In this document: in pieces, positions 13,857-50,104 of the stretch
Layout of the letters: every line of letters begins with the position of its first letter
How positions within the stretch are numbered: position 1 is the stretch's first letter
Assembly (NCBI GenBank): GCA_963825525.1
Contig: CAWGTN010000002.1
Location: forward strand, 1,568,001 to 1,632,000
Direction of reading: 5' to 3'
DNA: 64,000 nt
Source: an uncultured Chloroflexia bacterium
Lineage (GTDB): Bacteria; Chloroflexota; Limnocylindria; QHBO01
Made by a program: the position numbers and the translations under genes
The notes under the pieces: generated by a model
Databases searched by the model: none
Told to the model about the DNA's origin: nothing
The model's input: the letters and a program-made list of their open reading frames with translations, nothing else

Positions 13857-15056
13857 GTGGCCATCGAGGTCGCAGGCGACTCCTCGGACGCCTCAGATTT
13901 CGAGCAGGCGATCATGGCCGCCTCGCGCTCGTACCGGTTCGGCGAGATCGAGGTTCCGGCGACCATCGCCCGCGCCATCGAGAAGATGGGGTTCGTCTCG
14001 CCGACCGAGGTGCAGGCACGTTCGATTCCGCCGCTTCGGCGCGGCGAGGATCTCATCGGCCAGGCCCAGACCGGAACCGGCAAGACCGCGGCCTTCGGCA
14101 TCCCGATCGTCGAGAAGATCGACCCTTCGAGCGGCCACGTCCAGGCACTGGTCCTGACGCCGACCCGCGAGCTGTGCGTCCAGGTCACCGAGGAGATCGC
14201 GCGCATCGGCGGCTTCAGGAACATTCGAACCGTGGCGATCTACGGCGGCTCGTCGATGGACCGCCAGATCGAGGGCCTGAAGCGCGGCGCCCAGGTCGTG
14301 GTGGGGACGCCGGGACGGGTGCTGGATCTGATCCGGCGTGGAGAGCTGCGACTCGACCGGGTCCACACCGTGATCCTCGACGAGGCCGATCGGATGCTCG
14401 ACATGGGATTCATCGTCGACGTCGAGACGATCCTGGCCCGAAGCCCTCGACAGCGGCAGACCGCGTTGTTCAGCGCCACCATGCCGTACGCCATCCTTCG
14501 CATCTGCGACCGCTTCATGAAGAAGGATCCGGCGCACGTCACGGTTCGACCCGACCTCCGGACAGTCGAGACCGTGCGCCAGGTCGTGTACTTCGTGGCG
14601 GAGCAGGACAAGGTTTCGGCACTGCTGGAGCTGACCGATCAGTTCGGGTTCGATCGGCTGCTCGTCTTCCGGCACACCCAGATCGGCGTCGATCGCCTGG
14701 CCGCCACGCTCCAGCGACGCGGGAAGAACGTCGCCGGGCTGCACGGCGGCCTCTCGCAGCGAGAGCGAGACCGCACCCTGGCCGCCTTCCGCGACGGGAA
14801 GATCCAGTTCCTGATCGCCACCAACGTCGCGAGTCGCGGGCTCGACATCACGGATCTGCCGTACGTCGTCTCGTACGACATCCCCGAGGACGCCGACACC
14901 TACGTCCACCGCATCGGCCGCACCGGTCGGGCGGGGAAGGAGGGGACCGCCATCACCTTCGTGGGCGAGTGGGACCTCGATGCGTGGGAGGCCATACGCT
15001 CGGAGGTCGGGGCAGCGGTCGAAGAAGGCAAGCTCGACCTGTACGACCGGGGCTGA
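13857..15056 (+). CDS. DEAD-box RNA helicase
   Basis: Q motif PTEVQ, AQTGTGKT, PTREL, DEADRM, SAT, HRIGRTGRAG. Start uncertain. Confidence 0.95.
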   Translation: MAIEVAGDSSDASDFEQAIMAASRSYRFGEIEVPATIARAIEKMGFVSPTEVQARSIPPLRRGEDLIGQAQTGTGKTAAFGIPIVEKIDPSSGHVQALVLTPTRELCVQVTEEIARIGGFRNIRTVAIYGGSSMDRQIEGLKRGAQVVVGTPGRVLDLIRRGELRLDRVHTVILDEADRMLDMGFIVDVETILARSPRQRQTALFSATMPYAILRICDRFMKKDPAHVTVRPDLRTVETVRQVVYFVAEQDKVSALLELTDQFGFDRLLVFRHTQIGVDRLAATLQRRGKNVAGLHGGLSQRERDRTLAAFRDGKIQFLIATNVASRGLDITDLPYVVSYDIPEDADTYVHRIGRTGRAGKEGTAITFVGEWDLDAWEAIRSEVGAAVEEGKLDLYDRG

Positions 15057-15103: not shown

Positions 15104-15793
15104 ATGATGAATGAGCCGATCCTGCCGCAGCTGCCGGTCGAGGCGAACGCCGAGGTGCTGAGCGTCGAGTGGCTGTTCGAGCCGTTGTGGCCGGGAACGC
15201 GCCTGCTCGCTCACGCATCGAACGGGACGGTGAGCCTGACCGATGAGCACGGCGAGGTGGCAGGCACGGATGACGGGCTGGCCGATGCCCCGGCCGTGCT
15301 CGGCAGCGCGATCCTGGCCGACGGCGCCGTCGTCGACGGCGTGTGGACGGCGCAGCCGTTCGTCGGTGATGGGAGCCCGGCCCGCGCATGGGCCGAGACG
15401 CTCGAGGCGGAAGGCCTCGCCAGCGAGATCCCCGACCCGCTCGAGACGGAGCGGCGCCGAGCGTTCGTGGCCGTCGACCTCGTCGAGCTTGACGGCGAGG
15501 CGCTCCACGAGATCCCGTTCCAGGAGCGCCGCCGGCTGCTCGAGTCCGTGATCGACGAGGGCGTGCGCGTGCGGCTGAGCCCGGTGGTCAAGCAGCCTCT
15601 CGCCGGCTGGATGGTGGGATGGCGGGCCAACGGATTCACCCACTACCTCGCCAAGCACATGAACTCGCGCTATCACCCCGGCGAGCGGACCGAGGACTGG
15701 CTCAAGCTCTCGCTTCGAGCCGAGGCGCCGCGCAGCTTCATGGGCAGGATGATGGGAGGGCGCGGCGACCGGGTCCGCCGCGTTCGAGACTAG
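15104..15793 (+). CDS. Degenerate ATP-dependent DNA ligase adenylation domain (pseudo-ligase 1)
   Basis: WLFEPLWPGTR (motif I without Lys), VVDGV, VDLVELDG..L...P..ERRRLLE, AKHMNSRYHPGERTEDWLKL. No OB domain. Leaderless start. Confidence 0.8.
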   Translation: MMNEPILPQLPVEANAEVLSVEWLFEPLWPGTRLLAHASNGTVSLTDEHGEVAGTDDGLADAPAVLGSAILADGAVVDGVWTAQPFVGDGSPARAWAETLEAEGLASEIPDPLETERRRAFVAVDLVELDGEALHEIPFQERRRLLESVIDEGVRVRLSPVVKQPLAGWMVGWRANGFTHYLAKHMNSRYHPGERTEDWLKLSLRAEAPRSFMGRMMGGRGDRVRRVRD

Positions 15794-15880: not shown

Positions 15881-17197
15881 CTGACATCCAACTCCGCCGC
15901 CGTGCCCGCATCAGCACTCGAGGCCGAGGGTCTCGCGGAGGTTCGCCGCATCGGCTCGGCCGACCTCATGGTCGGAATTCCGTCCTTCGGCAACGCCGAG
16001 ACCATCGGCTACGTGGTGCGAGCCACCACCGCCGGCATGGTCCAGTACTTCCCCGAGATGAAGCCCGTGCTCGTCAACAGCGACGGCGGATCGCCCGACG
16101 ATACGCCCCGGGTCGCGGTGAGCACCGAGAGCCCGGACTACCTCGAGAAGGTGATCCTGGTCAGCCCCAAGCACAAGCTCCAGCGCATCAGCTTCACGTA
16201 CCAGGGCACCAGCGGGAAGGGGACCGCGGTCCGGGCGCTGTTCGAGGTCGCGCGGGAGCTCAAGGTCAAGGCCATGGTCATGGTCGACTCGGATCTGCGC
16301 TCGATCGTGCCCGAATGGGTCGAGCTGCTGGCCGGCCCGATCCTGAAGGGCGGCTACGACTTCGTGGCGCCGATGTACTCGCGCTACAAGTACGACGGCA
16401 CCATCACCAACAACATCAGCTATCCGCTCACCCGAACCCTGTACGGGACGCGCATCCGGCAGCCGATCGGCGGCGACTTCGGGGTCTCGGGCGACCTCGT
16501 GAGCCGCTACCTCGAGCTCGACACCTTCGACGAGCTCACCGCGCGCTTCGGAATCGACATCTGGATGACGCATTCGGCGATCAACGAGGGATTCGCCGTC
16601 TGCCAGGCGCGGCTGGGCGCCAAGATCCACGATGCCAAGGACCCTGCCAGCGACCTTGGGCCGATGTTCCGCCAGGTGGTCGGCACGCTCTTCCGCCTGG
16701 CGGGGCATTACGAGGACCGATGGCTCCGCGTGCGCGGATCCCATCCGATCCCCGAGTACGGGTTCGAGCGCGTGGTTGCTCCCGAGGAGATCAGCGTGAA
16801 CCACGCCAAGCTCATCGACAACTTCGACCAGGCACGGCTCACGCAGAGAGACGTCTGGGCCGAGATGCTCAGCGAGGAGCAGCTCGAGCGGGTCATGGCG
16901 CTGGAGCTTCCGCCCGACACCTCGGACTTCCACTTCCCCCCCGAGCTCTGGATCCGCTGCCTGTTCGACGCGCTGGTTGCCTTCCACCGACCCGGGATTG
17001 ACCGCGAGAAGCTGCTCGCGGCGTTGACGCCGCTCTACTTCGGCCGGACGGCGGGATTCATCAGCAGCACGCTCGACATGACGACCGACCAGGCGGAACG
17101 CGTCATCGACGACCAGGCCCGCCAGTTCGAAGAGCTCAAGCCGTACCTGGTGACGCGCTGGCGGGAGATGCGGTCGGCGTCGAGCACGGCGAGCTGA
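15881..17197 (+). CDS. GT2-like glucosylglycerate/mannosylglycerate synthase (Ggs-like)
   Basis: VGIPSFGNAETI, NSDGGSPDDT, GKGTAV, VDSDLRS, YSRYKYDGTITN, RQPIGGDF, FGIDIWMT, KIHDAKDP. GAGGAGG lies 7 nt before CTG 15881; alternative start GTG 15902. Confidence 0.82.
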   Translation: MTSNSAAVPASALEAEGLAEVRRIGSADLMVGIPSFGNAETIGYVVRATTAGMVQYFPEMKPVLVNSDGGSPDDTPRVAVSTESPDYLEKVILVSPKHKLQRISFTYQGTSGKGTAVRALFEVARELKVKAMVMVDSDLRSIVPEWVELLAGPILKGGYDFVAPMYSRYKYDGTITNNISYPLTRTLYGTRIRQPIGGDFGVSGDLVSRYLELDTFDELTARFGIDIWMTHSAINEGFAVCQARLGAKIHDAKDPASDLGPMFRQVVGTLFRLAGHYEDRWLRVRGSHPIPEYGFERVVAPEEISVNHAKLIDNFDQARLTQRDVWAEMLSEEQLERVMALELPPDTSDFHFPPELWIRCLFDALVAFHRPGIDREKLLAALTPLYFGRTAGFISSTLDMTTDQAERVIDDQARQFEELKPYLVTRWREMRSASSTAS

Positions 17198-41274: not shown

Positions 41275-43014
41275 GTGACCAATGCATCGAGCCCGTTCGC
41301 CGATCTGGCCGCCACGGCCGCCGCCGTCGGCGCAACGCGCAGCAAGAACGCGAAGCGCGATCTCCTCGCCGCGTACCTCCGCGATCTTGGTCCCGATGAC
41401 CTCGCGGCCGCCTCTGCCTTCTTCAGCGGACGGCCGCTGACTGACCCGACCGCGAAGCTCGGCATGGGCTGGGTCCAGCAGGGTGCGGCGCTCACGCGCG
41501 CCACCGGCGCCGATGACGAAAAGATCCGCGCGGCCTACCTCCGTCACTCGGACTTCGGCGATGCGGCCGGCGAGTTGCTGGCCAACGCGTCGCCGGCGGA
41601 TCCGCCGCTGACCGTGCAGGACGTGGCATCGACCTTCGCGGAGATCGCGTCCGCGTCGAATGGCGAGGCTCGGATCGCGCTGCTTGCCGACCTGTTTCAC
41701 CGTGCGGGACCCGATGGCGCCCGCTTCATCGGACGAATCTCCTCTCGCGAGACCCGCATCGGCCTGCGTGAGGGCCTGCTCGAGGAGGCCGTGGCTGCGG
41801 CGTTTGACGCGGAGCTCGCCGCCGTTCGCCGCGCGCACATGCTCACCGGCGACATCGGCGAGGCGGCGCTGTTGGCCCGCGATGGTCGCCTGGCTGACGC
41901 GGCGCTGCACATCGGCCGCCCGATCCGCTTCATGCTCGCTTCACCGCTTGCCGATGCCGACGAGGTGATGCGCCGGGTCGGCGGCGAGGCATGGATCGAG
42001 GACAAGTACGACGGCATCCGGGCGCAGCTCCACCTGCACGCCGGCGGACGGCTTCAGCTCTTCAGCCGTGACCTCAACGACGTGACGCGGTCGTTCCCCG
42101 AGATTGCCGACGTGGCCGGGGCACTGGCGTCGGCCGCGCCGCTGGTCATCGACGGCGAGCTGGTCCCGTGGCGGGAGGGATCGGTGCTCGATTTCGCATC
42201 GCTCCAGACGCGCCTGGGCCGGGTTCGCCCCTCGGCCGCGCTCCTTGCCGAGGTCCCGGTGGTGCTGGTGGCGTTCGACCTCCTCCATCACGCCGGTCGC
42301 GACATGCTCGAGGTCCCGCTCCGGGAGCGTCGCGCGGCGCTCGAGTCGCTGTCCCTGCCCGACCTCACGTCCGAGCGCATCCTGCTCGCCCACCTCGCGA
42401 CCGCCGCATCGGCCGTTGAGGTGGACCGTCACTTCGACGACGCGCGTGAGCGTCGGAACGAGGGGCTGATGATCAAGGATCCCGACTCGACGTATCAGCC
42501 GGGACGTCGGGGTCTCGGGTGGCTCAAGCTGAAGAAGGCGCTCGCCACGCTCGACTGCGTGGTGGTGGGTGTCGAGTGGGGCCACGGCAAGCGCAAGGAC
42601 GTCCTGTCCGACTACACGTTCGCGGTGCGCGACGGGGATGCCCCCGACGCCGCGCTGCTGACCATCGGCAAGGCGTACACGGGCCTGACCGATGCCGAGA
42701 TCGCCGAGATGACGCGACACTTTGCGTCGATCACGCTTCGCGACCATGGGCGCTACCGCACGGTAGTTCCGGAAGTCGTGGTGGAGATCGCGTTCGACCG
42801 GATCATGCGGTCGACTCGCCACCGGTCCGGCTTCGCCATGCGGTTCCCGCGCATCGTCCGCATCCGCGACGACAAGACGGCCGCCGAAATCGACACCCTC
42901 GCCACCGTCGAGGCTCTGTTCGGCGACCAGGCAACCGGACGGATTCTGCTGGCCACCGGTGCATCCGGCGAGACGGAGCGCATCACGGCCACGGGAGAAG
43001 CCGGCGACCTATGA
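41275..43014 (+). CDS. ATP-dependent DNA ligase (LigB-type, intact)
   Basis: N-terminal DBD, motif I EDKYDGIR, IDGE, FDLL, EGLMIK, WLKLK, OB domain, MRFPR..RIRDDK. Confidence 0.95.
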   Translation: MTNASSPFADLAATAAAVGATRSKNAKRDLLAAYLRDLGPDDLAAASAFFSGRPLTDPTAKLGMGWVQQGAALTRATGADDEKIRAAYLRHSDFGDAAGELLANASPADPPLTVQDVASTFAEIASASNGEARIALLADLFHRAGPDGARFIGRISSRETRIGLREGLLEEAVAAAFDAELAAVRRAHMLTGDIGEAALLARDGRLADAALHIGRPIRFMLASPLADADEVMRRVGGEAWIEDKYDGIRAQLHLHAGGRLQLFSRDLNDVTRSFPEIADVAGALASAAPLVIDGELVPWREGSVLDFASLQTRLGRVRPSAALLAEVPVVLVAFDLLHHAGRDMLEVPLRERRAALESLSLPDLTSERILLAHLATAASAVEVDRHFDDARERRNEGLMIKDPDSTYQPGRRGLGWLKLKKALATLDCVVVGVEWGHGKRKDVLSDYTFAVRDGDAPDAALLTIGKAYTGLTDAEIAEMTRHFASITLRDHGRYRTVVPEVVVEIAFDRIMRSTRHRSGFAMRFPRIVRIRDDKTAAEIDTLATVEALFGDQATGRILLATGASGETERITATGEAGDL

Positions 43015-43021
43015 TTCGCCG

Positions 43022-43801
43022 ATGAGCGAGCTTCCCGAGCATGTCCGTCGCAACCGCGAGGCATGGGATGAGATGGCTGCGGGCTTCGTGGCCAACGGCG
43101 AGCGCAGCTGGGCGACCGACGAGTTCACCTGGGGCGTGTGGGGCGTCCCGGAGTCGGAGCTCCGGGCACTTCCGGCGGACGTCGAGGGCAAGGATGTGAT
43201 CGAGCTCGGCTGCGGGACCGCCTACGTCTCGGCGTGGCTCGCCCGACGAGGGGCTCGGCCGGTCGGGATCGACAACAGCCCCAAGCAGCTCGAGACGGCG
43301 CGCCGCCTCCAGGCCGAGCACGGGTTGGACTTCCCGCTGCTGCTCGGCAGCGCCGAGGAGGTCCCGTACCCGGACGAGAGCTTCGACATCGCCATCAGCG
43401 AATACGGCGCCTCGATCTGGGCCGATCCGGACCGCTGGATTCCGGAGGCAGCTCGGCTGCTGCGACCCGGTGGGGAGCTGGTGTTCCTGGTGAACGGCGT
43501 CTTCTTCATCCTCACGGTGCCGGATACGAATGACGAGGGCCCGGCCACCGAACGACTGCTGCGCCCCTACTTCGGGATGCGTCGGTTCGAATGGCCCGAC
43601 GACCCCGGGGTGGAGTTCCATCTCGGCTACGGCGACATGATCCGCGTGCTGCGCTCGAGCGGCTTCGAGGTCCTCGACCTCATCGAGGTCCGTGCGCCGG
43701 AGGGTGGCACCACCAACGACCATCTCCAGGATCCGGCCTGGGCACGTCGATGGCCGTCGGAGGAGATCTGGAAGGCTCGCAAGCTCGGCCGGGTCGGGTA
43801 G
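43022..43801 (+). CDS. Class I SAM-dependent methyltransferase
   Basis: VIELGCGTA, GIDNS, PYPDESFD, ARLLRPGG. Confidence 0.92.
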   Translation: MSELPEHVRRNREAWDEMAAGFVANGERSWATDEFTWGVWGVPESELRALPADVEGKDVIELGCGTAYVSAWLARRGARPVGIDNSPKQLETARRLQAEHGLDFPLLLGSAEEVPYPDESFDIAISEYGASIWADPDRWIPEAARLLRPGGELVFLVNGVFFILTVPDTNDEGPATERLLRPYFGMRRFEWPDDPGVEFHLGYGDMIRVLRSSGFEVLDLIEVRAPEGGTTNDHLQDPAWARRWPSEEIWKARKLGRVG

Positions 43802-43810
43802 GATCGGCCC

Positions 43811-44407
43811 ATGGACTCGTTCGGCGGCTTCAGCGCGGCAACGGAGAAGAAGGTCGACCTGCTGACCGACTCGTATCGGATCTCGGGGGTGATCCTCACC
43901 CGGTTCACGCGGGTGACCGACATCCTCAACCAGGTGACCGGCAGCCACCTCACCGTCGGGCAGGCGACGATCAGCGAGCATGCCGACCCGAGCGCGACAC
44001 AGTCGGCCCCCACGGTCAACGTCGAGCTGTCGTCGATCCTCGTGCTCGTCGCGCCGGAGCTCGTGGGCTCGGCGAGCTCGGAGATGCGCGTGCCGAAGCG
44101 ACCCGTTCGTGCCCAGCTGGCCATCCCCCCGCTGCGGTGCACGGGGACGATCCACGTGGCCCAGGGCAGCCGGCCGCTCGACGGCCTTCTCAACCTGACC
44201 GATCGGTTCATCGCCATGACCGACGTGCAGGTTGAGTCGGGGCCGTATCCGCAGCTCGCGCGAAGCGCGGACGTCGTTGCCGTCGCCCGCGCGCGGGCGC
44301 AGCTGCTCCTGGTGGTCGATGACGAACGGCCCGATGAGCTCCTTGCGGACGTGCTCGACCAGCAGACCGCCCAGACATGGCTGCGCACGGACGACGGCGA
44401 CCGCTGA
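43811..44407 (+). CDS. Hypothetical protein with internal duplication (DUF6812-like)
   Basis: Two similar halves: RISGVI..RVTDILN..HLTV and RCTGTIHV..RPLDGLLN..FIAMTD. Confidence 0.6.
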   Translation: MDSFGGFSAATEKKVDLLTDSYRISGVILTRFTRVTDILNQVTGSHLTVGQATISEHADPSATQSAPTVNVELSSILVLVAPELVGSASSEMRVPKRPVRAQLAIPPLRCTGTIHVAQGSRPLDGLLNLTDRFIAMTDVQVESGPYPQLARSADVVAVARARAQLLLVVDDERPDELLADVLDQQTAQTWLRTDDGDR

Positions 44408-44416
44408 CAGCCCGCG

Positions 44417-45172
44417 TCAGGAAGAGTGTCGTACCTCACGGCCACGTGACAGCTCGATCCTGGTGGTCTCCGCCGCATCCAGCACGGCCGAAATGAGGGC
44501 CCGACCCGCGACCGGATCGAGGCGGCGGGCACGGCCGATCGCGTTGGCCCACCACGGTGCGTTGTCGGCGGTGACGATCTCGTCCTCCGGTTCCTCCAGG
44601 ACGATCTTGGAACCGCGCAGCGGGAAGACGGCGACGCCGCGGACCGGCACGTTCGCGATTCCGACCTGGCTCGCCCAGCGCGCCACCCCCTCGGCGAGAC
44701 CGCCCGCGTCGTGGCTGGGATTGGTCCGGCAGCGGATCCAACCCCGGTTGCCTCCCGCGTCGAACTCCCAGCGGCGTCCGCGGACGCGGTAGTTGCCATC
44801 CCAGTCCCGCACGGTGAGTGCGCGGACGCCGGCCGGCCCGATGAGCAGGCCGTCGAGGCGCGCGGCGTCCCGGATGGGCAGTCGGGGGCCGATGACCAGG
44901 GTGTACGTGTCATCGAAGGCCGGCGCGAGCAGGCGTTCGACCAGCGCTCCGGCGGACCGGGACCGGCCGGGCAGGACCAGCCTGGCGAGCCACACGGCTC
45001 CCACGCCAAGGCCGACGGCGGCCACCATTCCCATTGGGCCGATGAGGCCGGGCGTCCCCCTGCCCGCAACGAGCGCAATGATCGTGGCGAGCACACCGGT
45101 CAGGGTCATGGCCACGGCCACGAGGAGCGCGCGGGCACGGTGTGGTGAGGGCGCTGGCCGGATCACGCGCAT
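44417..45172 (-). CDS. Membrane-anchored NERD (nuclease-related domain) protein, degenerate
   Basis: Two N-terminal TMs; LDGLLIGPAGV, WDG.Y and NP match NERD; the expected ExK reads TVR. Confidence 0.75.
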   Translation of the reverse strand: MRVIRPAPSPHRARALLVAVAMTLTGVLATIIALVAGRGTPGLIGPMGMVAAVGLGVGAVWLARLVLPGRSRSAGALVERLLAPAFDDTYTLVIGPRLPIRDAARLDGLLIGPAGVRALTVRDWDGNYRVRGRRWEFDAGGNRGWIRCRTNPSHDAGGLAEGVARWASQVGIANVPVRGVAVFPLRGSKIVLEEPEDEIVTADNAPWWANAIGRARRLDPVAGRALISAVLDAAETTRIELSRGREVRHSS

Positions 45173-45204: not shown

Positions 45205-45678
45205 ATGTCGATCACCATTCATGCGTCGGTTGATGCTGACGCGAACCGCGTCGAGGCCCGAATCTCGGAGACGGCCATGGTCACCATGGATTCGGATACT
45301 CGCGATGCGCCCGCGGGCGGCCCGAAGGGGGTGCTGCTCACCGCGCTGGCGGGCTGCACAGGCCTGGACGTGGTGAGCATTCTCCTCAAGAAGCGCCAGC
45401 GCATCGGGACGTACGAGATCTCGGTGCGCGGCGAGGTCGCCGCCGAGCATCCGCGGGTCTTCACGACCATCGAGGTCGAACACCAGGTCGTGGGTGAGGT
45501 GGCTCCCGAGGCGCTGCGCCGCTCGATCGAGCTGTCCGCCACGCGCTACTGCCCGGTCAACGCCATGCTCTCGGCCTCCGCGACGGTCGAGCACCATTAT
45601 CGGTTGACCGATGCCGCCGGCGCGGAGCACGCGGCGCTGGTCGCGGTCACCGGACCAGACGGCTCGCGGGTCCTGTAG
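45205..45678 (+). CDS. OsmC family protein
   Basis: GPKGVLLTALAGCTGLDV and SATRYCPV (two conserved Cys). Confidence 0.9.
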   Translation: MSITIHASVDADANRVEARISETAMVTMDSDTRDAPAGGPKGVLLTALAGCTGLDVVSILLKKRQRIGTYEISVRGEVAAEHPRVFTTIEVEHQVVGEVAPEALRRSIELSATRYCPVNAMLSASATVEHHYRLTDAAGAEHAALVAVTGPDGSRVL

Positions 45679-45695
45679 GCCGGCTCCAGGGCGGG

Positions 45696-46088
45696 TCACG
45701 ACGCGCTGCGAAGCTCCCGGCCGCGCTCCAGCGCTTCCTCGACGGCGAGGCGGAAGGTGTCGAGATCGAAGGGCTTCGGCACGACCGGTCCCAGGGGTCC
45801 CAGCTCGGCCAGCCGTTCGCGGCTGGCTGCCGACACGATGATGGCCGGAATGCCGGGCCAGGCGCTGCGCAACAGCTCGGTGATGTCGCCTCCATCCCCG
45901 TCGGGGAGCATGACGTCGACCACGAGCAGGTGAGGAAGTGCCACGTCCATGAGGTCACCAAGCTCGACGATTCGCGTGCAGGTCACAACGCCGAAGCCCA
46001 TCTCCCGCAGGAGATCGGCCTCGAGCGCGGCGATGTCGGGATCGTCCTCGAGGACGTAGGCGCGCTGGGCACCGGTGAGTTCGTTCAT
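45696..46088 (-). CDS. Single-domain response regulator (receiver only)
   Basis: VLEDD, VVDVMLPDGDG, IIVSA, PKPFDL. Confidence 0.88.
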   Translation of the reverse strand: MNELTGAQRAYVLEDDPDIAALEADLLREMGFGVVTCTRIVELGDLMDVALPHLLVVDVMLPDGDGGDITELLRSAWPGIPAIIVSAASRERLAELGPLGPVVPKPFDLDTFRLAVEEALERGRELRSAS

Positions 46089-46116
46089 TGCGCACAGTCT
46101 TATGGAGGTCATCGGC

Positions 46117-46156
46117 AAGGTCCAGTGGACCTTCCGGTTGGTACCCATGGGGTACC
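46117..46156. promoter_or_regulatory. Two adjacent perfect palindromes in the divergent receiver/ku promoter region
   Basis: AAGGTCCA-G-TGGACCTT (46117-46133) and GGTACCC-ATG-GGGTACC (46140-46156). Confidence 0.55.
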
Positions 46157-46248
46157 GGCCAATTTGCAGGCTCGGTGTACCATCACGGCCCGCGTTCGGG
46201 CACGCAGGGCACGGCGGGCCGCAGCGCAGCACAGGAGCACGAGACGGT

Positions 46249-47175
46249 ATGGCGCGATCCATGTGGCGGGGGGCGATCCAGTTCGGACTGGTGACGATCC
46301 CGGTCAAGCTCTACCTGGCCACCGAGCAGGGAAGCATCGGCTTCAACCTGCTTCATGCCAGCTGCCTCAATCGCATCCAGATGAAGGTGTACTGCCCGTA
46401 TCACGACGAGGTCATTCCACGTTCGGAGACCGTTCGTGGCTACGAGTGGAGCAAGGGCAAGTACGTGGTCGTGACCGAGGAGGACATCGACTCGGTGCCG
46501 CTCAAGACGATGCGGGCCATCGAGATCGAGATGTTCATCAACAGTTCCCGGGACGCCGCAGGCACCCAGTTCGTCAAGCAGGCGTACTACCTGGAGCCCG
46601 AGCAGATCGGCGCCAAGGCGTTCTACCTGCTGAAGTCGGTGCTTGCCGAGCAGAACAAGAGCGCAATCTGCAAGATCGTGCTCAAGGACCGCGAGCAGCT
46701 GGCCGCGCTGAACCCGTTCAGCAATTCCATGCTCCTGACCACCCTCCACTGGCCGGACGAGGTCCGGGCCATGGACGAGCTCAACCTCCCCGAGGATGAG
46801 ATCGAGATCAAGGCCAGCGAGAAGAAGATGGCCGAGCAGCTGGTGGCCAGCATGACCGGCGACTTCAGCGCCGATGACTACCAGGACGACTACCGCCAGG
46901 CGCTGATGGCCGTGATCGAGCGCAAGGTCGCCGGCGAGAAGCCCGAGCCTGCTCAGCGCACGGAGCCGACGAACATCACCGACCTCATGGCGGCTCTCGA
47001 GGCATCAGTTGCGGCCGCTCGCCACGACCGCACGACCGAGGCCGAGCCCAAGGCGGCGGCAGCCAAGCCCCGTCCCAAGGTGGCGGCCAAGGGCAAGGCA
47101 AAGGCGAAGGTCGCAGCGAAGGTTGCCGCCGCGGAGGAAGAGGCACCGCGGCAGCGACGGCGCAAGACAGCCTGA
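46249..47175 (+). CDS. ku: NHEJ DNA end-binding protein Ku
   Basis: RSMWRGAIQFGLVTIPVKLY, RGYE, YYLEP, LHWPDEVR, DDYRQAL, DLMAALEAS; basic Lys/Ala tail. Confidence 0.96.
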   Translation: MARSMWRGAIQFGLVTIPVKLYLATEQGSIGFNLLHASCLNRIQMKVYCPYHDEVIPRSETVRGYEWSKGKYVVVTEEDIDSVPLKTMRAIEIEMFINSSRDAAGTQFVKQAYYLEPEQIGAKAFYLLKSVLAEQNKSAICKIVLKDREQLAALNPFSNSMLLTTLHWPDEVRAMDELNLPEDEIEIKASEKKMAEQLVASMTGDFSADDYQDDYRQALMAVIERKVAGEKPEPAQRTEPTNITDLMAALEASVAAARHDRTTEAEPKAAAAKPRPKVAAKGKAKAKVAAKVAAAEEEAPRQRRRKTA

Positions 47176-47186
47176 CGCGGCGGGAC

Positions 47187-47885
47187 GTGCCCGGAGACCA
47201 GCTGGACCTCTCGATTGCGGCGGCCGCCGCCGACCGCCTGCCTCCGCGCGTGTCCCCCATGCAACCCACGGCCGGCGCCGGGCCGTTCGATGACCCCGAC
47301 TACCTGTTCGAGGCGTGGTGGCCGGGGATCCGTGCACAGGCCTGGGTGGAGGATGGAACGCTCGTGCGGCTCCGAGCCGAGGGCCTGGCCGATGCCCTGA
47401 CCACGTTCGCGGAGCTCACCGAGGAGCTGCCCGAGCGACTCCTGGACGATGGCGTGATCCTCGATGGCTGGCTGCTCGCCCTCGACGACGGGGGGTGGCT
47501 CGACACCGACCTTCTCCGCCGCCGGTTGTCCGGCGATCGGGCCGCCGGCCGCCCGGCTTTCGTTGCCTCCGATCTGCTCTGGTGCGGTGGTGTCGACTGG
47601 CAGCGTCGGGCGTTCTCGTCGCGCCGTGCAAGATTGGAGGGCGTTCTACAGGACGGCGACCGGTGCGTGGTGTCGCATGCCCTCCGCGGGGAGGGAACGC
47701 TACTGGCCGAGGCCCTGGCCCGGTTCGGCCTCGGCGCCATCAGCGCGCGCCGCCTCGATGCGCGCTACCGCACCGGTTCGGCCGGCGATGCGTGGCTCCG
47801 GCTGCCCCTGGCTCCGGAGCCGGTCACCGAGCGGCCGCGGCTGGCACTCATCCAGCGGCTCCCTTTCCCGGACGACGCTCCCTAG
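47187..47885 (+). CDS. Degenerate LigD-type ligase adenylation domain (pseudo-ligase 2)
   Basis: PMQP...PFDDPDYLFEAWWPGIR (no catalytic Lys), ILDGW, SDLL, GLGAISARR.DARYRTG...WLRL. No OB, PE or POL domain. 11 nt after ku. Confidence 0.82.
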   Translation: MPGDQLDLSIAAAAADRLPPRVSPMQPTAGAGPFDDPDYLFEAWWPGIRAQAWVEDGTLVRLRAEGLADALTTFAELTEELPERLLDDGVILDGWLLALDDGGWLDTDLLRRRLSGDRAAGRPAFVASDLLWCGGVDWQRRAFSSRRARLEGVLQDGDRCVVSHALRGEGTLLAEALARFGLGAISARRLDARYRTGSAGDAWLRLPLAPEPVTERPRLALIQRLPFPDDAP

Positions 47886-50104
47886 GGAAGCACCCGTTCG
47901 AGGGTCCACGGGAATGGCGGGCGCGTGGCGAGCCGGAACGCCGCCGGCACGTACCCGTCCAGCGGATAGGCCCGGAAGCTCCCGATCTCGAGGACGGTGG
48001 ACGGCACCCCGACCTCGAGGTCGCGGCTGGGGAATGCGCGGCCGCGGACCGCGCTGGCAACGCGGATGGCATCCTCGGTCGGCTCACCCCACGCCGAGCG
48101 CAGGACGACGTTGATGTCGTGGGTGCGGACGTCCTCGGACCGCGCCTGGAGTGCCGTTGCGAGCCATTGATCGGCTTCCGCACGCTCGTCGAGCATGGCG
48201 TGGGCCAATGCGCGCACCGCCGGATCCTCGAACTCGGTGGGCTGGAACGGCTCGCCGCTGGCGTGGCGCGCCAGGAGCAGGTTCAGCTGCCAGGTCGCCT
48301 CCGCGATCTCCGGGATCGTCCCGTCACCGATCGTCACCGTCCGGGGCCAGTCGACCACGAACGACGTGGTGGGTTGGGTCAGCAGCGAGAGGCGGTACGC
48401 GGAGTCGGCTGCATCGGCCTGGCCAAGTCGGTCGAGGAGCAGTGCCGCGTTGAGGAGATCCGGGGCGAGGTAGCGGGCGGTGGCCGCGGCACGATGCCCC
48501 GCCTCGATGGCGCAGGTCGTCTCCTCGCGCTGCTCGCACAGGAGCCCGCGATTGATCCAGGCCGTGGAGTCACCGGGGTTGAGGACGGTCGCCTGCTCGG
48601 CAGCCTCAGCTGCCAGATCCGTCTGCCGATTCGCCGCCGCGGCGACGCTCAGGGCACGCGGCCCCGCAGGATGCCACGGGTCGATCTCCACGGCCCGAGC
48701 CAGCCAGGCGCTGGATGCGCTCCAGTCGCTGGACCCGGCGGCGTCAGTGCCCGCCCGATAGGCGATCGCACCGGCATCGGCGACGACCATGGCCCAGCCG
48801 AGGACGAGGCTCATGCCGGCGCCTCCGGCGATCAGCACGCCCCGGCGCGCCATCGTCCGGAACCTCAGCGGTCGCCATGCCACCGCCCCGGCATCGGTCA
48901 GCGCCACGGCCACCAGGAGTATCACGAGCAGGTCGAATCCCGGAAGGAATGTCAGATCCTCGAACAGCCCGCCGATCCCCAGGCCGATGAGGACCACCGC
49001 CGCCGCTCGGCCGGCCGTCGTGCGGCTGCGCCACGGACCGGCGACCGCCACCAGCGTCCCCACCACGACCAGTGCCGCGACCAGCCCCACGATCCCCGCG
49101 TCGCCCAGCACGCCGAGGAGCAGGTTGTGCGAGTGTGGCTGCCGGACCGGGAAGCTGAAGTCCGCCGCCGCGGCCTGTCGCGCGTAGGGCATGAATCCGG
49201 GCCCGATCCCGAAGACGGGGTCGCTGCCCCACGCGACGAGGGTGTCGCGCCACAGGGCGCCGCGATATAGCAGCGAGGTCACCGCCGTGACCCGGGGCAG
49301 GACGAAGACCAGGCCGATGCCGATGACGGCCAGGGCGGCCGCCGATGCAGCCAGGCCCGTGCCCGTCACCCGCCGCGGCCAATGGAGTCGACCGCGGCGC
49401 GACCAGGCCCATGGCACTCCGGCGATCACCGAGGCAACGGCGATGGCGAGCCAGGCGGACCGTGATCCGGACAGGACGACGAGCGGAGCGCCCACCGCCA
49501 CCAGGCCGATTCGGACCGTCCGTCGCAGGCCGTCGTGCTCGATGAGTCCGGCGAGTGCCCACGCCGGGATGAGGACGAACGGAGGCACCGCCACCGACCC
49601 GAAGGGCGTCCCCTCGGCGGGCAGCCGCAGTGGCGGGAGCCCCGGAGCCCCGACCAGCACCCACTCGATGCGACGGGCCACCAGGACGCCGAGGGTCGGA
49701 ATCGAGAGCGCGAGGATCGGCACGCTGGTGACGAGCCCAACCCACGTCGGGCGGTGCCGGATCGCGATGAGGGCAACCGGAAGCATGGCGGCGAACGCGG
49801 TGATGGTGGCCATCGCACGAAGGCTCATGCCAAGATTGAGCGCGCCAAGGGTGGCGAGCGCGAACGCCGCCAGCAGGCCGAGGAGCGGCAACTCGAGCGG
49901 GGTTCGCGGCATGACGTGGCCGCGCACGGCGAGCACCAGGACGCCACCCACCGCACCGATCGCCAGCAGGTGGAGCAGCAGCTGCAGGCGCGCGTCCCAC
50001 AGCGCGCCATCCCAGCCGACGTACGAGAATACGGCGATCGCCGCGGCAAGGGCCAGCCAGGCGCCGGGTCCGGCGCTGGGTCGGGTTGCGGACGGGTGGC
50101 TCAT
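47882..50104 (-). CDS. O-antigen ligase (Wzy_C/WaaL) family membrane protein with TPR-like C-terminus
   Basis: Many TMs, LSGSRSAWLA, R..LW, FGIGPG, HSHN...GDAGIVGL; helical repeats (AVEIDP, ATVLNP). Confidence 0.85.
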   Translation of the reverse strand: MSHPSATRPSAGPGAWLALAAAIAVFSYVGWDGALWDARLQLLLHLLAIGAVGGVLVLAVRGHVMPRTPLELPLLGLLAAFALATLGALNLGMSLRAMATITAFAAMLPVALIAIRHRPTWVGLVTSVPILALSIPTLGVLVARRIEWVLVGAPGLPPLRLPAEGTPFGSVAVPPFVLIPAWALAGLIEHDGLRRTVRIGLVAVGAPLVVLSGSRSAWLAIAVASVIAGVPWAWSRRGRLHWPRRVTGTGLAASAAALAVIGIGLVFVLPRVTAVTSLLYRGALWRDTLVAWGSDPVFGIGPGFMPYARQAAAADFSFPVRQPHSHNLLLGVLGDAGIVGLVAALVVVGTLVAVAGPWRSRTTAGRAAAVVLIGLGIGGLFEDLTFLPGFDLLVILLVAVALTDAGAVAWRPLRFRTMARRGVLIAGGAGMSLVLGWAMVVADAGAIAYRAGTDAAGSSDWSASSAWLARAVEIDPWHPAGPRALSVAAAANRQTDLAAEAAEQATVLNPGDSTAWINRGLLCEQREETTCAIEAGHRAAATARYLAPDLLNAALLLDRLGQADAADSAYRLSLLTQPTTSFVVDWPRTVTIGDGTIPEIAEATWQLNLLLARHASGEPFQPTEFEDPAVRALAHAMLDERAEADQWLATALQARSEDVRTHDINVVLRSAWGEPTEDAIRVASAVRGRAFPSRDLEVGVPSTVLEIGSFRAYPLDGYVPAAFRLATRPPFPWTLERVLP

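Follow-up and report, generated by a model that had tools for sequence, protein, structure and literature searches.

A catalytically dead LigD-type ligase domain encoded beside ku in Chloroflexota, probably an accessory component of Ku/LigD end joining

Results

Gene content of the locus

The window (the whole 64-kb stretch of DNA that was analysed) carries a ku gene that is followed by a gene for a 232-aa protein, hereafter the pseudo-ligase (PL). The features of the locus are listed below, with the corresponding letters of Mycobacterium tuberculosis (Mtb) LigD given for the motifs.

46249..47175, + strand: ku (308 aa; PF02735 133.9 bits, TIGR02772 264 bits)
47176..47186, + strand: ku-PL spacer of 11 nt, between the TGA stop of ku and the GTG start of PL at 47187
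47187..47885, + strand: PL (232 aa), a LigD-type nucleotidyltransferase (NTase) domain only, with two disordered tails (from profile matches and the AF2 model)
47199..47216, + strand: N-terminal peptide QLDLSI of PL (residues 5-10), with conserved positions in an alignment of 26 family members
47307..47333, + strand: dead motif I FEAWWPGIR (residues 41-49), with W44 in place of the adenylated Lys and P46 in place of the Asp
47460..47474, + strand: dead motif III LDGWL, Glu replaced by Trp (Mtb LDGE, PL LDGW)
47559..47582, + strand: remnant of motif IIIa FVASDLLW (Mtb FDLLY, PL SDLLW), D129 invariant
47727..47753, + strand: dead motif IV GLGAISARR, EG..K lost (Mtb EGVIAK, PL GAISAR)
47793..47807, + strand: dead motif V WLRLP, both Lys lost (Mtb W-V-K, PL W-L-R, then L-P)
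47832..47867, + strand: C-terminal peptide RPRLALIQRLPF of PL (residues 216-227), conserved in 26 family members
47882-50104, opposing PL: convergent Wzy_C/TPR gene (740 aa), overlapping the PL stop by 4 nt
41275-43014: intact three-domain ATP-dependent ligase (PF04675 + PF01068 + PF04679)
15104-15793: PL2, which represents another family of dead ligases in this window

An alignment of 19 orthologues divides the ku product into a core, a minimal C-terminus that is conserved (DLMAALEASV) and a basic extension that ends in RRRKTA. PL begins with MPGDQLDLSI and ends with ...LIQRLPFPDDAP; the intact frame, the GDQLDL start region and the C-terminal end described in the original prediction hold in both coordinates and anatomy. 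Scans of positions 45600-48200 returned 0 promoter-like sites and, inside the PL ORF, two overlapping terminator-like sites relative to 0.5 expected; both scans were judged uninformative. PADLOC matched no defence-system model to PL, Ku, PL2, the NERD-like protein or the DUF6812 protein.

Fold of PL and loss of the catalytic motifs

The ORF downstream of ku had been proposed to keep the scaffold of the LigD adenylation domain, and profile searches agree: PF01068 matches PL with 26.6 bits (cut-off 26.2) and the NCBIfam LigD model NF007210 with an E-value of 1.3e-22, over model positions 471-657 of 781. The AF2 model of PL, built from an alignment that contained active ligases, has a pLDDT of 90.1 and a pTM of 0.82, with low confidence at residues 1-20 and 208-232. 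The best Foldseek matches of this model are ATP-dependent DNA ligases (E 1.7e-13, TMq 0.70-0.72), and Mtb LigD is matched at a TMq of 0.66-0.69 and 26-27% identity.

Motifs were compared on a phmmer alignment of PL to the LIG module of Mtb LigD (1vs0/6nhx, E 1e-9). Motif I reads E-G-K-W-D-G-Y-R in Mtb LigD and E-A-W-W-P-G-I-R in PL. All the residues that had been called lost (the Lys and Asp of motif I, the Glu of motif III, the EG..K of motif IV and the lysines of motif V) are indeed replaced. The same is true of the claim that PL has no OB, POL or PE domain: its ORF stops 25 residues past motif V, and an OB domain would not fit in, since the convergent gene overlaps this stop. Proteins of the family have lengths of 225-249 aa. 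None of the 232 residues of PL is a lysine, 16 of its 20 close homologues are equally devoid of lysine, and no Lys column is conserved. PL shares with the LIG module of LigD and with Lig-only NHEJ ligases (Mtb LigD LIG 1VS0/6NHX, LigC-type) the NTase fold, the best HMM matches, the position downstream of ku and the N-terminal lead-in PMxP..PFDDPDxLFE, but it differs from them in lacking the catalytic residues of motifs I, III, IV and V, the OB domain, motif VI and any lysine. Because it possesses neither the nucleophile nor the acidic and basic residues that contact the nucleotide, PL is predicted to be unable to form ligase-AMP by the known mechanism. Judged from its sequence, PL is a genuine pseudo-ligase that has lost catalysis and retained the fold.

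Conservation, selection and phylogeny

Conservation of the lysine loss and of the WPG signature had been put forward as a test. In an alignment of homologues, F41, E42, W44, W45, P46, G47 and R49 are invariant in 20/20 close homologues, and W44 and P46 are at least 90% conserved across 26 family members, down to 35% identity. Estimates of dN/dS for PL were below 1, the limit named in the original prediction (0.08, 0.11 and 0.17 in the three closest pairs), compared to 0.09-0.12 for ku. Values of 0.26-0.65 obtained from distant pairs were set aside, since their dS of 0.55-1.3 (NG86, 69% GC genome) looks saturated.

In the ligase-domain tree, whose backbone is unresolved, the family with the WWPG signature forms one clade (SH-aLRT 99, 23 rows), and the LIG domains of the resident LigD proteins form a separate one (SH-aLRT 99, 10 rows). 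This indicates that the WWPG family is old and not a recent broken copy. The near-identical N-terminal lead-ins of PL and of the resident LigD LIG domain also raised the possibility of a recent duplication, but the tree places PL outside the LigD LIG clade.

These data bear on the possibility that PL is a decaying pseudogene or a sequencing artefact. Its Pfam score, which barely passes the threshold, speaks for this possibility. Against it, at least 120 homologues from several data sources (73-100% identity) have an intact ORF of equal length, the residues at the replaced positions do not vary, dN/dS is about 0.1 and the family is a single old clade. We regard this explanation as refuted: the pattern of substitutions indicates that PL is under purifying selection and is not decaying.

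LigD-like domains without the motif I lysine have arisen several times, with at least 7 label changes forced by well-supported branches. Among the PL query and its 150 nearest representatives at 50% identity, this lysine is absent in 58 (many of which are fragments of PL's own family), present in 73 and gapped in 20. Finally, predicted pI values in the PL family extend from 4.6 to 10.5, a spread that does not allow a shared electrostatic mode, such as DNA binding, to be deduced for PL.

Linkage of PL to ku

Conservation of the linkage of PL to ku had also been put forward as a test, and synteny supports it: ku is the adjacent upstream gene, on the same strand, in 22/22 genomes with a WWPG-type gene, a count that includes the genomes G402, G407 and G412. 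This linkage spans two families and is kept where all other neighbours differ. Besides the window's own, the ku-PL spacers are 6-11 nt long in 15 loci of the same family with a placed start and 46-214 nt long in three loci of the other family. PL does occupy the usual position of ligD, as had been stated, since three relatives (L030, L034 and L037) carry a full-length ligD right after ku; in two other genomes (G088 and G253) the gene order is ku-PL-ligD. In two near-complete relatives, G046 (97%) and G160 (95% complete), no Ku other than the PL-linked one was found. One family member, G229, possesses ku without PL, which makes PL dispensable there.

Alternatively, PL might have nothing to do with Ku and instead, for example, sense nucleic acids or nucleotides or serve another pathway, in which case its adjacency to ku would be historical. 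A related K-less subclade in the genus g13 (L035, P0231) is consistent with this possibility: it presents both terminal peptides yet is not found beside ku, which is on another contig, and its neighbours are PPK2 upstream and ABC transporter genes downstream. In addition, in 7/8 loci of the PL2 family, that of the window included, the linked gene is a DEAD-box helicase rather than ku, and K-less LigD-like domains have several origins. Such a role is nevertheless improbable given the linkage in all 22 genomes of two families whose other neighbours are all different, the insertion of PL between ku and ligD in G088 and G253, and a parallel arrangement of ku, dead ligase and ligD in another family.

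That parallel was found in all five genomes of another Chloroflexota family (G041, G053, G110, G264 and G352), where ku is followed by a dead ligase with a K-to-R change and then by a LigD-type gene; this third gene is defined here as K-intact and LigD-type, leaving aside PE and POL domains. Motif I of the dead ligase reads FEVRWDGLR, the lysine being lost in all five genomes, and its representative P0169 has also lost the Glu of motif III and the Lys of motif V. These proteins resemble PL in their position directly after ku, in their Lys-less motif I and in tails of the type ...LPQLP[FL]. They differ in keeping a C-terminal half of OB-domain length (frames of 376-451 aa), in having RWDG rather than WWPG in motif I, and in belonging to another branch of the tree, in its unresolved backbone.

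LigD and other ligases in the same genomes

The original prediction envisaged a candidate non-canonical NHEJ adaptor system. That such a system could be LigD-less was contradicted by the search for ligD POL and PE domains elsewhere: the genome of the window encodes an intact PE-LIG-POL LigD, in an open frame of 988 aa with the motif I FEIKWDGYR, and a second Ku. LigD PE domains, in frames of 880-1180 aa located elsewhere in the genome, were identified in 18 of 21 family genomes, including 11/11 high-quality ones. Since an intact three-domain LigD is encoded elsewhere in the genome, PL accompanies LigD and does not replace it. The suggested bridge to the intact ligase at 41275-43014 found no backing either, as nothing ties PL to this ligase but synteny within one family.

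Terminal peptides and a possible link to the beta-clamp

Both tails of PL present a conserved short peptide. Among the 26 members, L8 of the N-terminal peptide is invariant and L6 is at least 90% conserved, for a family consensus of QLxLx[ILVF]. The C-terminal consensus is RPxLAL[IL]xRLP[LF], in which P217 and L225 are invariant and L219 and R224 are at least 90% conserved. Tails like this one, ...QLTRFPF and ...LPQLPF, end other ku-linked Lig-only proteins, active and inactive, and PL thus has a C-terminal tail of hydrophobic residues and proline in common with both. MAFFT aligned the C-terminal tail of PL to motif VI and the final OB strands of active ligases; we rejected this placement as an alignment artefact because, in active ku-linked Lig-only proteins, the OB domain is complete and is followed by a separate ...QLTRFPF tail.

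The xLDL peptide at the N-terminus is common to PL and LigD linkers. It aligns with a conserved [EGQ]IDL[STA] motif in the PE-LIG linker of Limnocylindria LigD proteins (linker and motif I were compared for L030, L034, L037 and L041), and the linker of the genome's own LigD, MPGPVGEIDLS..., can be set beside the N-terminus of PL, MPGDQLDLS.... The positional homology of the two motifs indicates that the peptide was inherited with the LigD module and predates PL.

Proteins that bind the beta-clamp share the consensus QL[SD]LF or QLxLxL. The QLxL motif of PL had been read as clamp-like, and the motif is conserved (QL in 21/26 members, QLxLx[ILVF] in 18/26); what did not hold is its status as a newly acquired clamp handle, given its homology to the LigD linker, which weakens the clamp idea. 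PL would, if this idea were correct, be an adaptor whose QLxLx[ILVF] peptide sits in the pocket of the beta-clamp and tethers Ku or end-joining enzymes to DnaN. Several observations are consistent with such an adaptor. The N-terminal peptide lies in a low-confidence and presumably disordered tail, 18/26 members fit the hexapeptide consensus QLxLxL (QLSLPL and QLPLPV are among the variants), and the genome has a dnaN gene. Conservation of Q-L is also much stronger in PL than in LigD linkers, which read E/G/Q-I, and a shift in specificity would be consistent with this. However, the motif was already present in LigD, where it does not match the clamp consensus, and Q-L is absent in 5/26 members, including both genomes with the order ku-PL-ligD (EPLPLEF). 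The bare pattern is also not rare: of the 14,058 frames of at least 100 aa in this genome, 36 have QLxLx[LIVF] or QL[SD]LF no more than 12 aa from a possible start, and the same clamp-type pattern has 2 matches at C-termini, the matches being mostly spurious high-GC frames. This genome-wide scan defined no lineage-specific clamp motif. The literature offered no meaningful link of LigD to a clamp-binding motif; among the matches listed, papers with both terms were unrelated. We therefore consider a clamp adaptor quite unlikely.

An adaptor of this kind would resemble ImuB, a catalytically dead Y-family polymerase that acts as a clamp-binding scaffold in mycobacterial mutagenesis. In both cases an enzyme fold is kept for interactions, a candidate clamp-type peptide is located on a flexible end and an active relative co-occurs. 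The folds and pathways are unrelated, however, and the candidate clamp motif of PL derives from a LigD linker peptide.

Predicted docking on Ku

A complex of two Ku chains with PL was predicted with a score of 0.43 (runs of 0.42, 0.43 and 0.46) versus 0.00 for the best of 3 controls, a score that is more often wrong than right unless the pairing was already likely. Of the solved complexes, 58 of 80 reach the mark, as do 2 of the 110 mismatched pairs, and passes at or below 0.60 comprise only 7 of the 80 solved complexes together with both mismatches. The partner pLDDT is 76, the runs share at least 50% of their contacts and no interface was given. This prediction hints that PL may dock directly on Ku.

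In M. tuberculosis, part of the interface for the Ku C-terminus is on the NTase part of the LIG module of LigD (D522, K579 and L580), and contacts of Ku with LIG stimulate ligation and attenuate the polymerase (PMC13717202). The PL residues A148 and R149, which correspond to Mtb K579 and L580 in the phmmer alignment, are variable in the family.

Discussion

Since every catalytic residue has been lost, PL is probably a non-enzymatic helper in bacterial DNA break repair. Our preferred reading, to which we give a probability of roughly 0.6, is that PL is a non-catalytic paralogue of the LigD ligase module that serves as an accessory subunit of Ku/LigD end joining, most likely at the ligase-docking position on the Ku dimer. 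PL and ku would share one transcript, probably with translational coupling of the two genes. PL appears to keep docking features, namely the NTase surface that is touched by the C-terminal arm of Ku in active LigD and, as further candidates, the two short peptides on flexible tails that are common to active and inactive ku-linked Lig-only proteins. At a DNA end, PL would most likely fill the ligase-docking position on the Ku dimer, where it would gate the access of LigD and thereby shift end processing relative to sealing, or hold a further partner. PL may thus have an effect on LigD. Overall, the adaptor interpretation of the original prediction is partly supported: a conserved, selected and ku-linked pseudo-ligase stands, and a LigD-less system, a newly acquired clamp handle and a link to the ligase at 41275-43014 find no support.

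An accessory subunit might also act negatively. As a sub-case of the preferred reading, PL could be a competitive decoy that binds where the LIG module of LigD would bind, at the Ku arm or at the nick, and inhibits or delays sealing, for instance to favour end processing or to restrain NHEJ during growth. The retention of docking features and not of chemistry speaks for a decoy, and the balance of ligation and polymerase activity set by Ku-LIG contacts of the Mtb type (PMC13717202) could be shifted by a non-catalytic mimic of LIG. On the other hand, tight operonic coupling to ku and 1:1 conservation across the family are equally expected of a positive structural subunit, and we hold the decoy to be possible but somewhat unlikely.

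The accessory subunit that we favour would have functional counterparts in eukaryotes, where XLF, PAXX and APLF are non-catalytic NHEJ scaffolds with short terminal Ku-binding motifs. Like these proteins, PL would be a non-enzymatic NHEJ factor that docks on Ku through peptides in disordered tails, but no relationship in sequence or fold connects them to PL. Bacterial Ku is a homodimer, and we know of no established Ku-binding peptide motif in bacteria. A more specific extension is that this class joins ends with a three-component machine, made up of Ku, LigD and a ligase-like subunit that is non-catalytic and dedicated to the task, and that one or more other Chloroflexota families do so in parallel. 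The two similar terminal peptides of the dead subunit (QLxLxΦ and LxRLPΦ) would grip two equivalent sites on a ring-shaped dimer, which could be both protomers of Ku, two Ku rings across the break (synapsis) or the beta-clamp. This extension is tentative and, taken as a whole, unlikely.

In the papers considered here, bacterial NHEJ is described as a two-protein system of Ku and LigD, and we found none that reports a ku-linked ligase paralogue without the lysine; such proteins might appear in supplementary files. The words 'lysine' and 'inactive' occur 0 times in the searched text of two surveys of NHEJ distribution, and HMM-based surveys of LIG domains would count PL-like proteins as ligases. 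The two terminal peptides offer small handles toward a first bacterial Ku-binding or clamp-binding motif in NHEJ. If our preferred reading is true, some bacteria have evolved a non-enzymatic scaffold or regulator of NHEJ, as eukaryotes did; this is strengthened by the second lineage, in which a different dead ligase came independently to lie between ku and ligD. If the three-component reading were also true, Chloroflexota would possess a bacterial NHEJ scaffold functionally analogous to eukaryotic XLF or PAXX.

The ku-PL locus

GC content ranges from 68 to 72% over the entire window. The ku gene is directly followed by the pseudo-ligase ORF (PL) in the following setting:

41275-43014: three-domain ATP-dependent ligase (syntenic block 41275-45172)
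43022-43801: SAM methyltransferase (same block)
43811-44407: DUF6812 protein (same block)
44417-45172: membrane-anchored protein with a weak NERD match, 18.6 bits, under the cut-off (same block)
46249-47175, +: ku (PF02735, 133.9 bits; TIGR02772, 264 bits)
47187-47885, +: PL, 232 codons, GTG start, 11 nt past the ku TGA stop
Convergent to PL: Wzy_C/TPR membrane-protein gene, 740 aa, its stop overlapping the PL ORF by 4 nt

This overlap leaves no more coding room downstream of PL on the plus strand.

A ligase domain without catalytic residues

PL matched the Pfam ATP-dependent ligase adenylation domain with 26.6 bits (threshold 26.2), and NCBIfam LigD models matched it solely through their ligase segment (NF007210, E = 1.3e-22, positions 471-657 of 781). 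Aligned to the solved ligase domain of M. tuberculosis LigD (E of about 1e-9), all residues of nucleotidyl-transfer chemistry were found to be replaced, and PL contains no lysine at all.

Table. Ligase motifs in active LigD and in PL
Motif I: active LigD K-W-D-G; PL W-W-P-G
Motif III: active LigD DGE; PL DGW
Motif IV: active LigD EGVIAK; PL GAISAR
Motif V: active LigD W-V-K; PL W-L-R-L-P

According to a LigD review, the ligase-AMP intermediate is formed by the catalytic lysine, and mutation of K481 blocks its formation. Because these motifs are replaced and no lysine is left, the original observation of a dead ligase domain was right in every detail. PL appears to be a pseudoenzyme that arose from the ligase module of LigD. 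Since the defining catalytic features were checked and found to be missing, PL is predicted not to function as a member of the ligase enzyme family.

The AlphaFold2 model of residues 21-207, built on an alignment of 58 rows that included active ligases, reached a pLDDT of 90.1 and a pTM of 0.82; confidence was low at residues 1-20 and 208-232. The top Foldseek matches of this model were ATP-dependent DNA ligases (TMq 0.70-0.72), with M. tuberculosis LigD at 0.66-0.69.

A conserved family linked to ku

A word-indexed protein search with PL scored 8000 candidates, of which 1220 matched with E up to 0.001. The top 120 were all 205-250 aa long with 73-100% identity and, where an organism was named, came from Candidatus Limnocylindria or Chloroflexota; the Atlas likewise pointed to Chloroflexota. 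F41, E42, W44, W45, P46, G47 and R49 were invariant across 20 close homologues. W44 and P46 remained at least 90% conserved among 26 members down to 35% identity, the sole exceptions being two side-branch proteins with S/R-W-G-G. Ratios of dN/dS for the three closest pairs (NG86; dS is saturated in more distant pairs) were 0.08, 0.11 and 0.17, similar to those of ku (0.09-0.12). In a quick-search tree of 83 nucleotidyltransferase (NTase) domains (184 columns, LG+G4, backbone unresolved), the 23 WWPG proteins formed a single clade (SH-aLRT 99) outside the Limnocylindria LigD ligase-domain clade (SH-aLRT 99, 10 rows).

The WWPG-type gene was immediately preceded by ku on the same strand in 22/22 genomes (19 loci fetched first plus three further genera, G402, G407 and G412), with a spacer of 6-11 nt in the window's family and, in three genomes of a second family, of 46-214 nt. 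The expected conservation of the lysine loss, purifying selection and ku linkage were thus all borne out, and the WWPG proteins are a family, not a lesion.

The WWPG type was present in 16 of the 17 genomes of the window's family (the window's own counted) and in 3/23 of the second family; it was not seen in further families among the matches listed for a 401-genome Chloroflexota sample (any match in 162 genomes; outside the listing, 167 weaker matches). About 8 kb of flank is also syntenic in the window's family, including the 41275-43014 ligase, the methyltransferase, the DUF6812 protein, the weak NERD match, OsmC and a response regulator; the second family keeps only ku-PL from this neighbourhood. 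Most of the family genomes examined carry block 41275-45172 beside ku-PL (8/8 with enough flank have the ligase, other genes are sometimes missing), and the second family lacks it. This within-family synteny was all that we found for the proposed tie between PL and the 41275-43014 ligase. In the second family, G088 and G253 present the order ku-PL-ligD with a full-length ligD, and in other genomes of that family ligD directly follows ku (L030, L034 and L037). The single family genome without PL, G229, has a short ku (L060 4048-4842, 264 aa) from which the basic extension ending RRRKTA at the C-terminus is missing, and the place of PL is taken by a convergent gene (435 aa); possibly, one deletion took the 3' end of ku together with PL.

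Two terminal peptides

The strongest conservation outside the PL core lies in its low-confidence ends. Across the 26 members, the N-terminus presents QL in 21 and QLxLx[ILVF] in 18, with L8 invariant, as anticipated for the QLxL motif; the C-terminus reads RPxLAL[IL]xRLP[LF] with invariant P217 and L225. In G208 and G368, an active Lig-only ligase right behind ku (KWDG intact, OB present) starts with ...DQLSIEL and ends with ...QLTRFPF, and similar hydrophobic-Pro tails end other representatives, both Lys-bearing and Lys-less. The N-terminal peptide aligns with a conserved [EGQ]IDL[STA] in the linker between the phosphoesterase (PE) and ligase (LIG) domains of LigD proteins of the class (MPGPVGEIDLS... 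in the host's own LigD, MPGDQLDLS... in PL). Both peptides predate the catalytic loss.

The N-terminal peptide had originally been read as a putative beta-clamp-binding motif, and it does resemble the hexapeptide clamp-binding consensus. We consider this unlikely: the peptide is a homologue of the one in the LigD linker, Q-L is absent from both ku-PL-ligD genomes, and the bare clamp pattern is common in the host genome (36 of 14,058 frames).

Other NHEJ genes of the host and its family

The host genome (2.58 Mb, 92% complete) encodes the following on its contigs C2 and C3:

C2:371512-373974: intact PE-LIG-POL LigD, 988-aa open frame, FEIKWDGYR
C2:399202-399750 (outside the window; locus L010): second Ku, inside a 620-aa stop-to-stop frame
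Near C2:936-941 kb: ligase and Prim-Pol pair
C3: third Prim-Pol

The polymerase (POL) and PE domains sought elsewhere are thus present in this LigD. All 21 family genomes, unpublished G403 and G409 included, contained Ku, and 18 contained the LigD PE domain (11/11 high-quality genomes). LigD has not been replaced by PL. The second-Ku type (169-191 bits against the Pfam model) was present in 8/21 family genomes. G046 and G160 yielded no Ku besides the PL-linked one, which makes this the main NHEJ Ku, not a spare copy.

Other dead ligases

Among PL and its 150 nearest 50%-identity representatives, the motif I lysine was present in 73, absent in 58 (many of them WWPG-family fragments) and gapped in 20. 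On the tree, the Lys-absent label changed at least seven times over well-supported branches, an automatic label that misfiled the window's LigB, a Lys carrier. In another Chloroflexota family, all five genomes examined (G041, G110, G264, G053 and G352; loci L064-L068) present ku, a Lig-like gene and then a LigD-type gene with intact lysine. The Lig-like gene has a 376-451-aa frame, motif I FEVRWDGLR, in which R replaces K, and the tail ...LPQLP[FL]; in its representative P0169, the Glu of motif III and the lysines of motif V are gone as well. These proteins are a dead ligase of independent origin at the operon position that PL occupies.

Many metagenomic LigD-like proteins of 300-370 aa, a length that leaves room for an OB domain, also lack the motif I lysine, with W, L, D, N, A, S or V instead (among them P0158, P0162, P0186, P0194, P0204, P0207, P0230 and P0252). 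Some share the terminal peptides of PL: P0162 starts with MPQLSLF, and P0230 starts with ..DQLTLQL and ends with ..LALLQRLPLPED. A Lys-less, NTase-only side branch (L056 9764-10489 in G237; L057-L059) has motif I FEPSWGGRR, keeps DGE and FDLL and carries the same N- and C-terminal peptides as PL. It is not adjacent to ku, which is located on another contig; ABC transporter genes lie downstream of it and, upstream, a gene that we take by eye to be PPK2-like.

The window holds a second dead ligase-like gene, PL2:

13857-15056: DEAD-box helicase gene
15104-15793, +: PL2, 229 aa, PF01068 29.9 bits, starting 47 nt past the helicase stop
15902-17197: 431-aa ORF

PL2 shares 27% identity with PL (E = 7e-12), and its motif I reads E-P-L-W-P-G-T-R. 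Among eight loci of the window's family, with that of the window counted, the helicase is alongside in 7/8 and the downstream ORF present in 7/8, and the lysine position is L, A, Y or C. Matches to PL2 occur class-wide (35-86% identity, 220-270-aa frames), 57 of 61 genomes having some match, in some only at LigD level.

Proposed role of PL

Main-text literature searches, with look-ups in the LigD review and in two NHEJ distribution surveys, turned up no account of a ku-linked ligase paralogue that lacks the Lys. Under selection, PL has retained its folded NTase domain together with two flexible peptides that Ku-associated ligases also carry; the chemistry and the OB clamp were discarded. For M. 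tuberculosis, a published study describes the NTase part of LigD LIG (D522, K579, L580) as one of two interfaces of the Ku C-terminal arm, a contact that it shows to tune ligation versus polymerisation (PMC13717202). Conservation is lacking at the PL positions that align with K579 and L580, which speaks neither for nor against docking on Ku.

Complex prediction with two Ku chains and PL (own alignments) gave 0.43 (runs 0.42, 0.43 and 0.46), whereas the best of three controls scored 0.00. Of the reference cases, 58/80 solved complexes and 2/110 mismatched pairs reached the mark, passes at 0.60 or less comprising just 7 of the 80 solved complexes and both mismatches. Partner pLDDT was 76, at least 50% of contacts agreed between runs, and no interface was reported. 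This prediction weakly suggests that PL binds Ku. On the simplest reading, PL would be a non-catalytic subunit that docks on Ku and there would either gate LigD access or hold a partner. PL is a candidate third NHEJ component.
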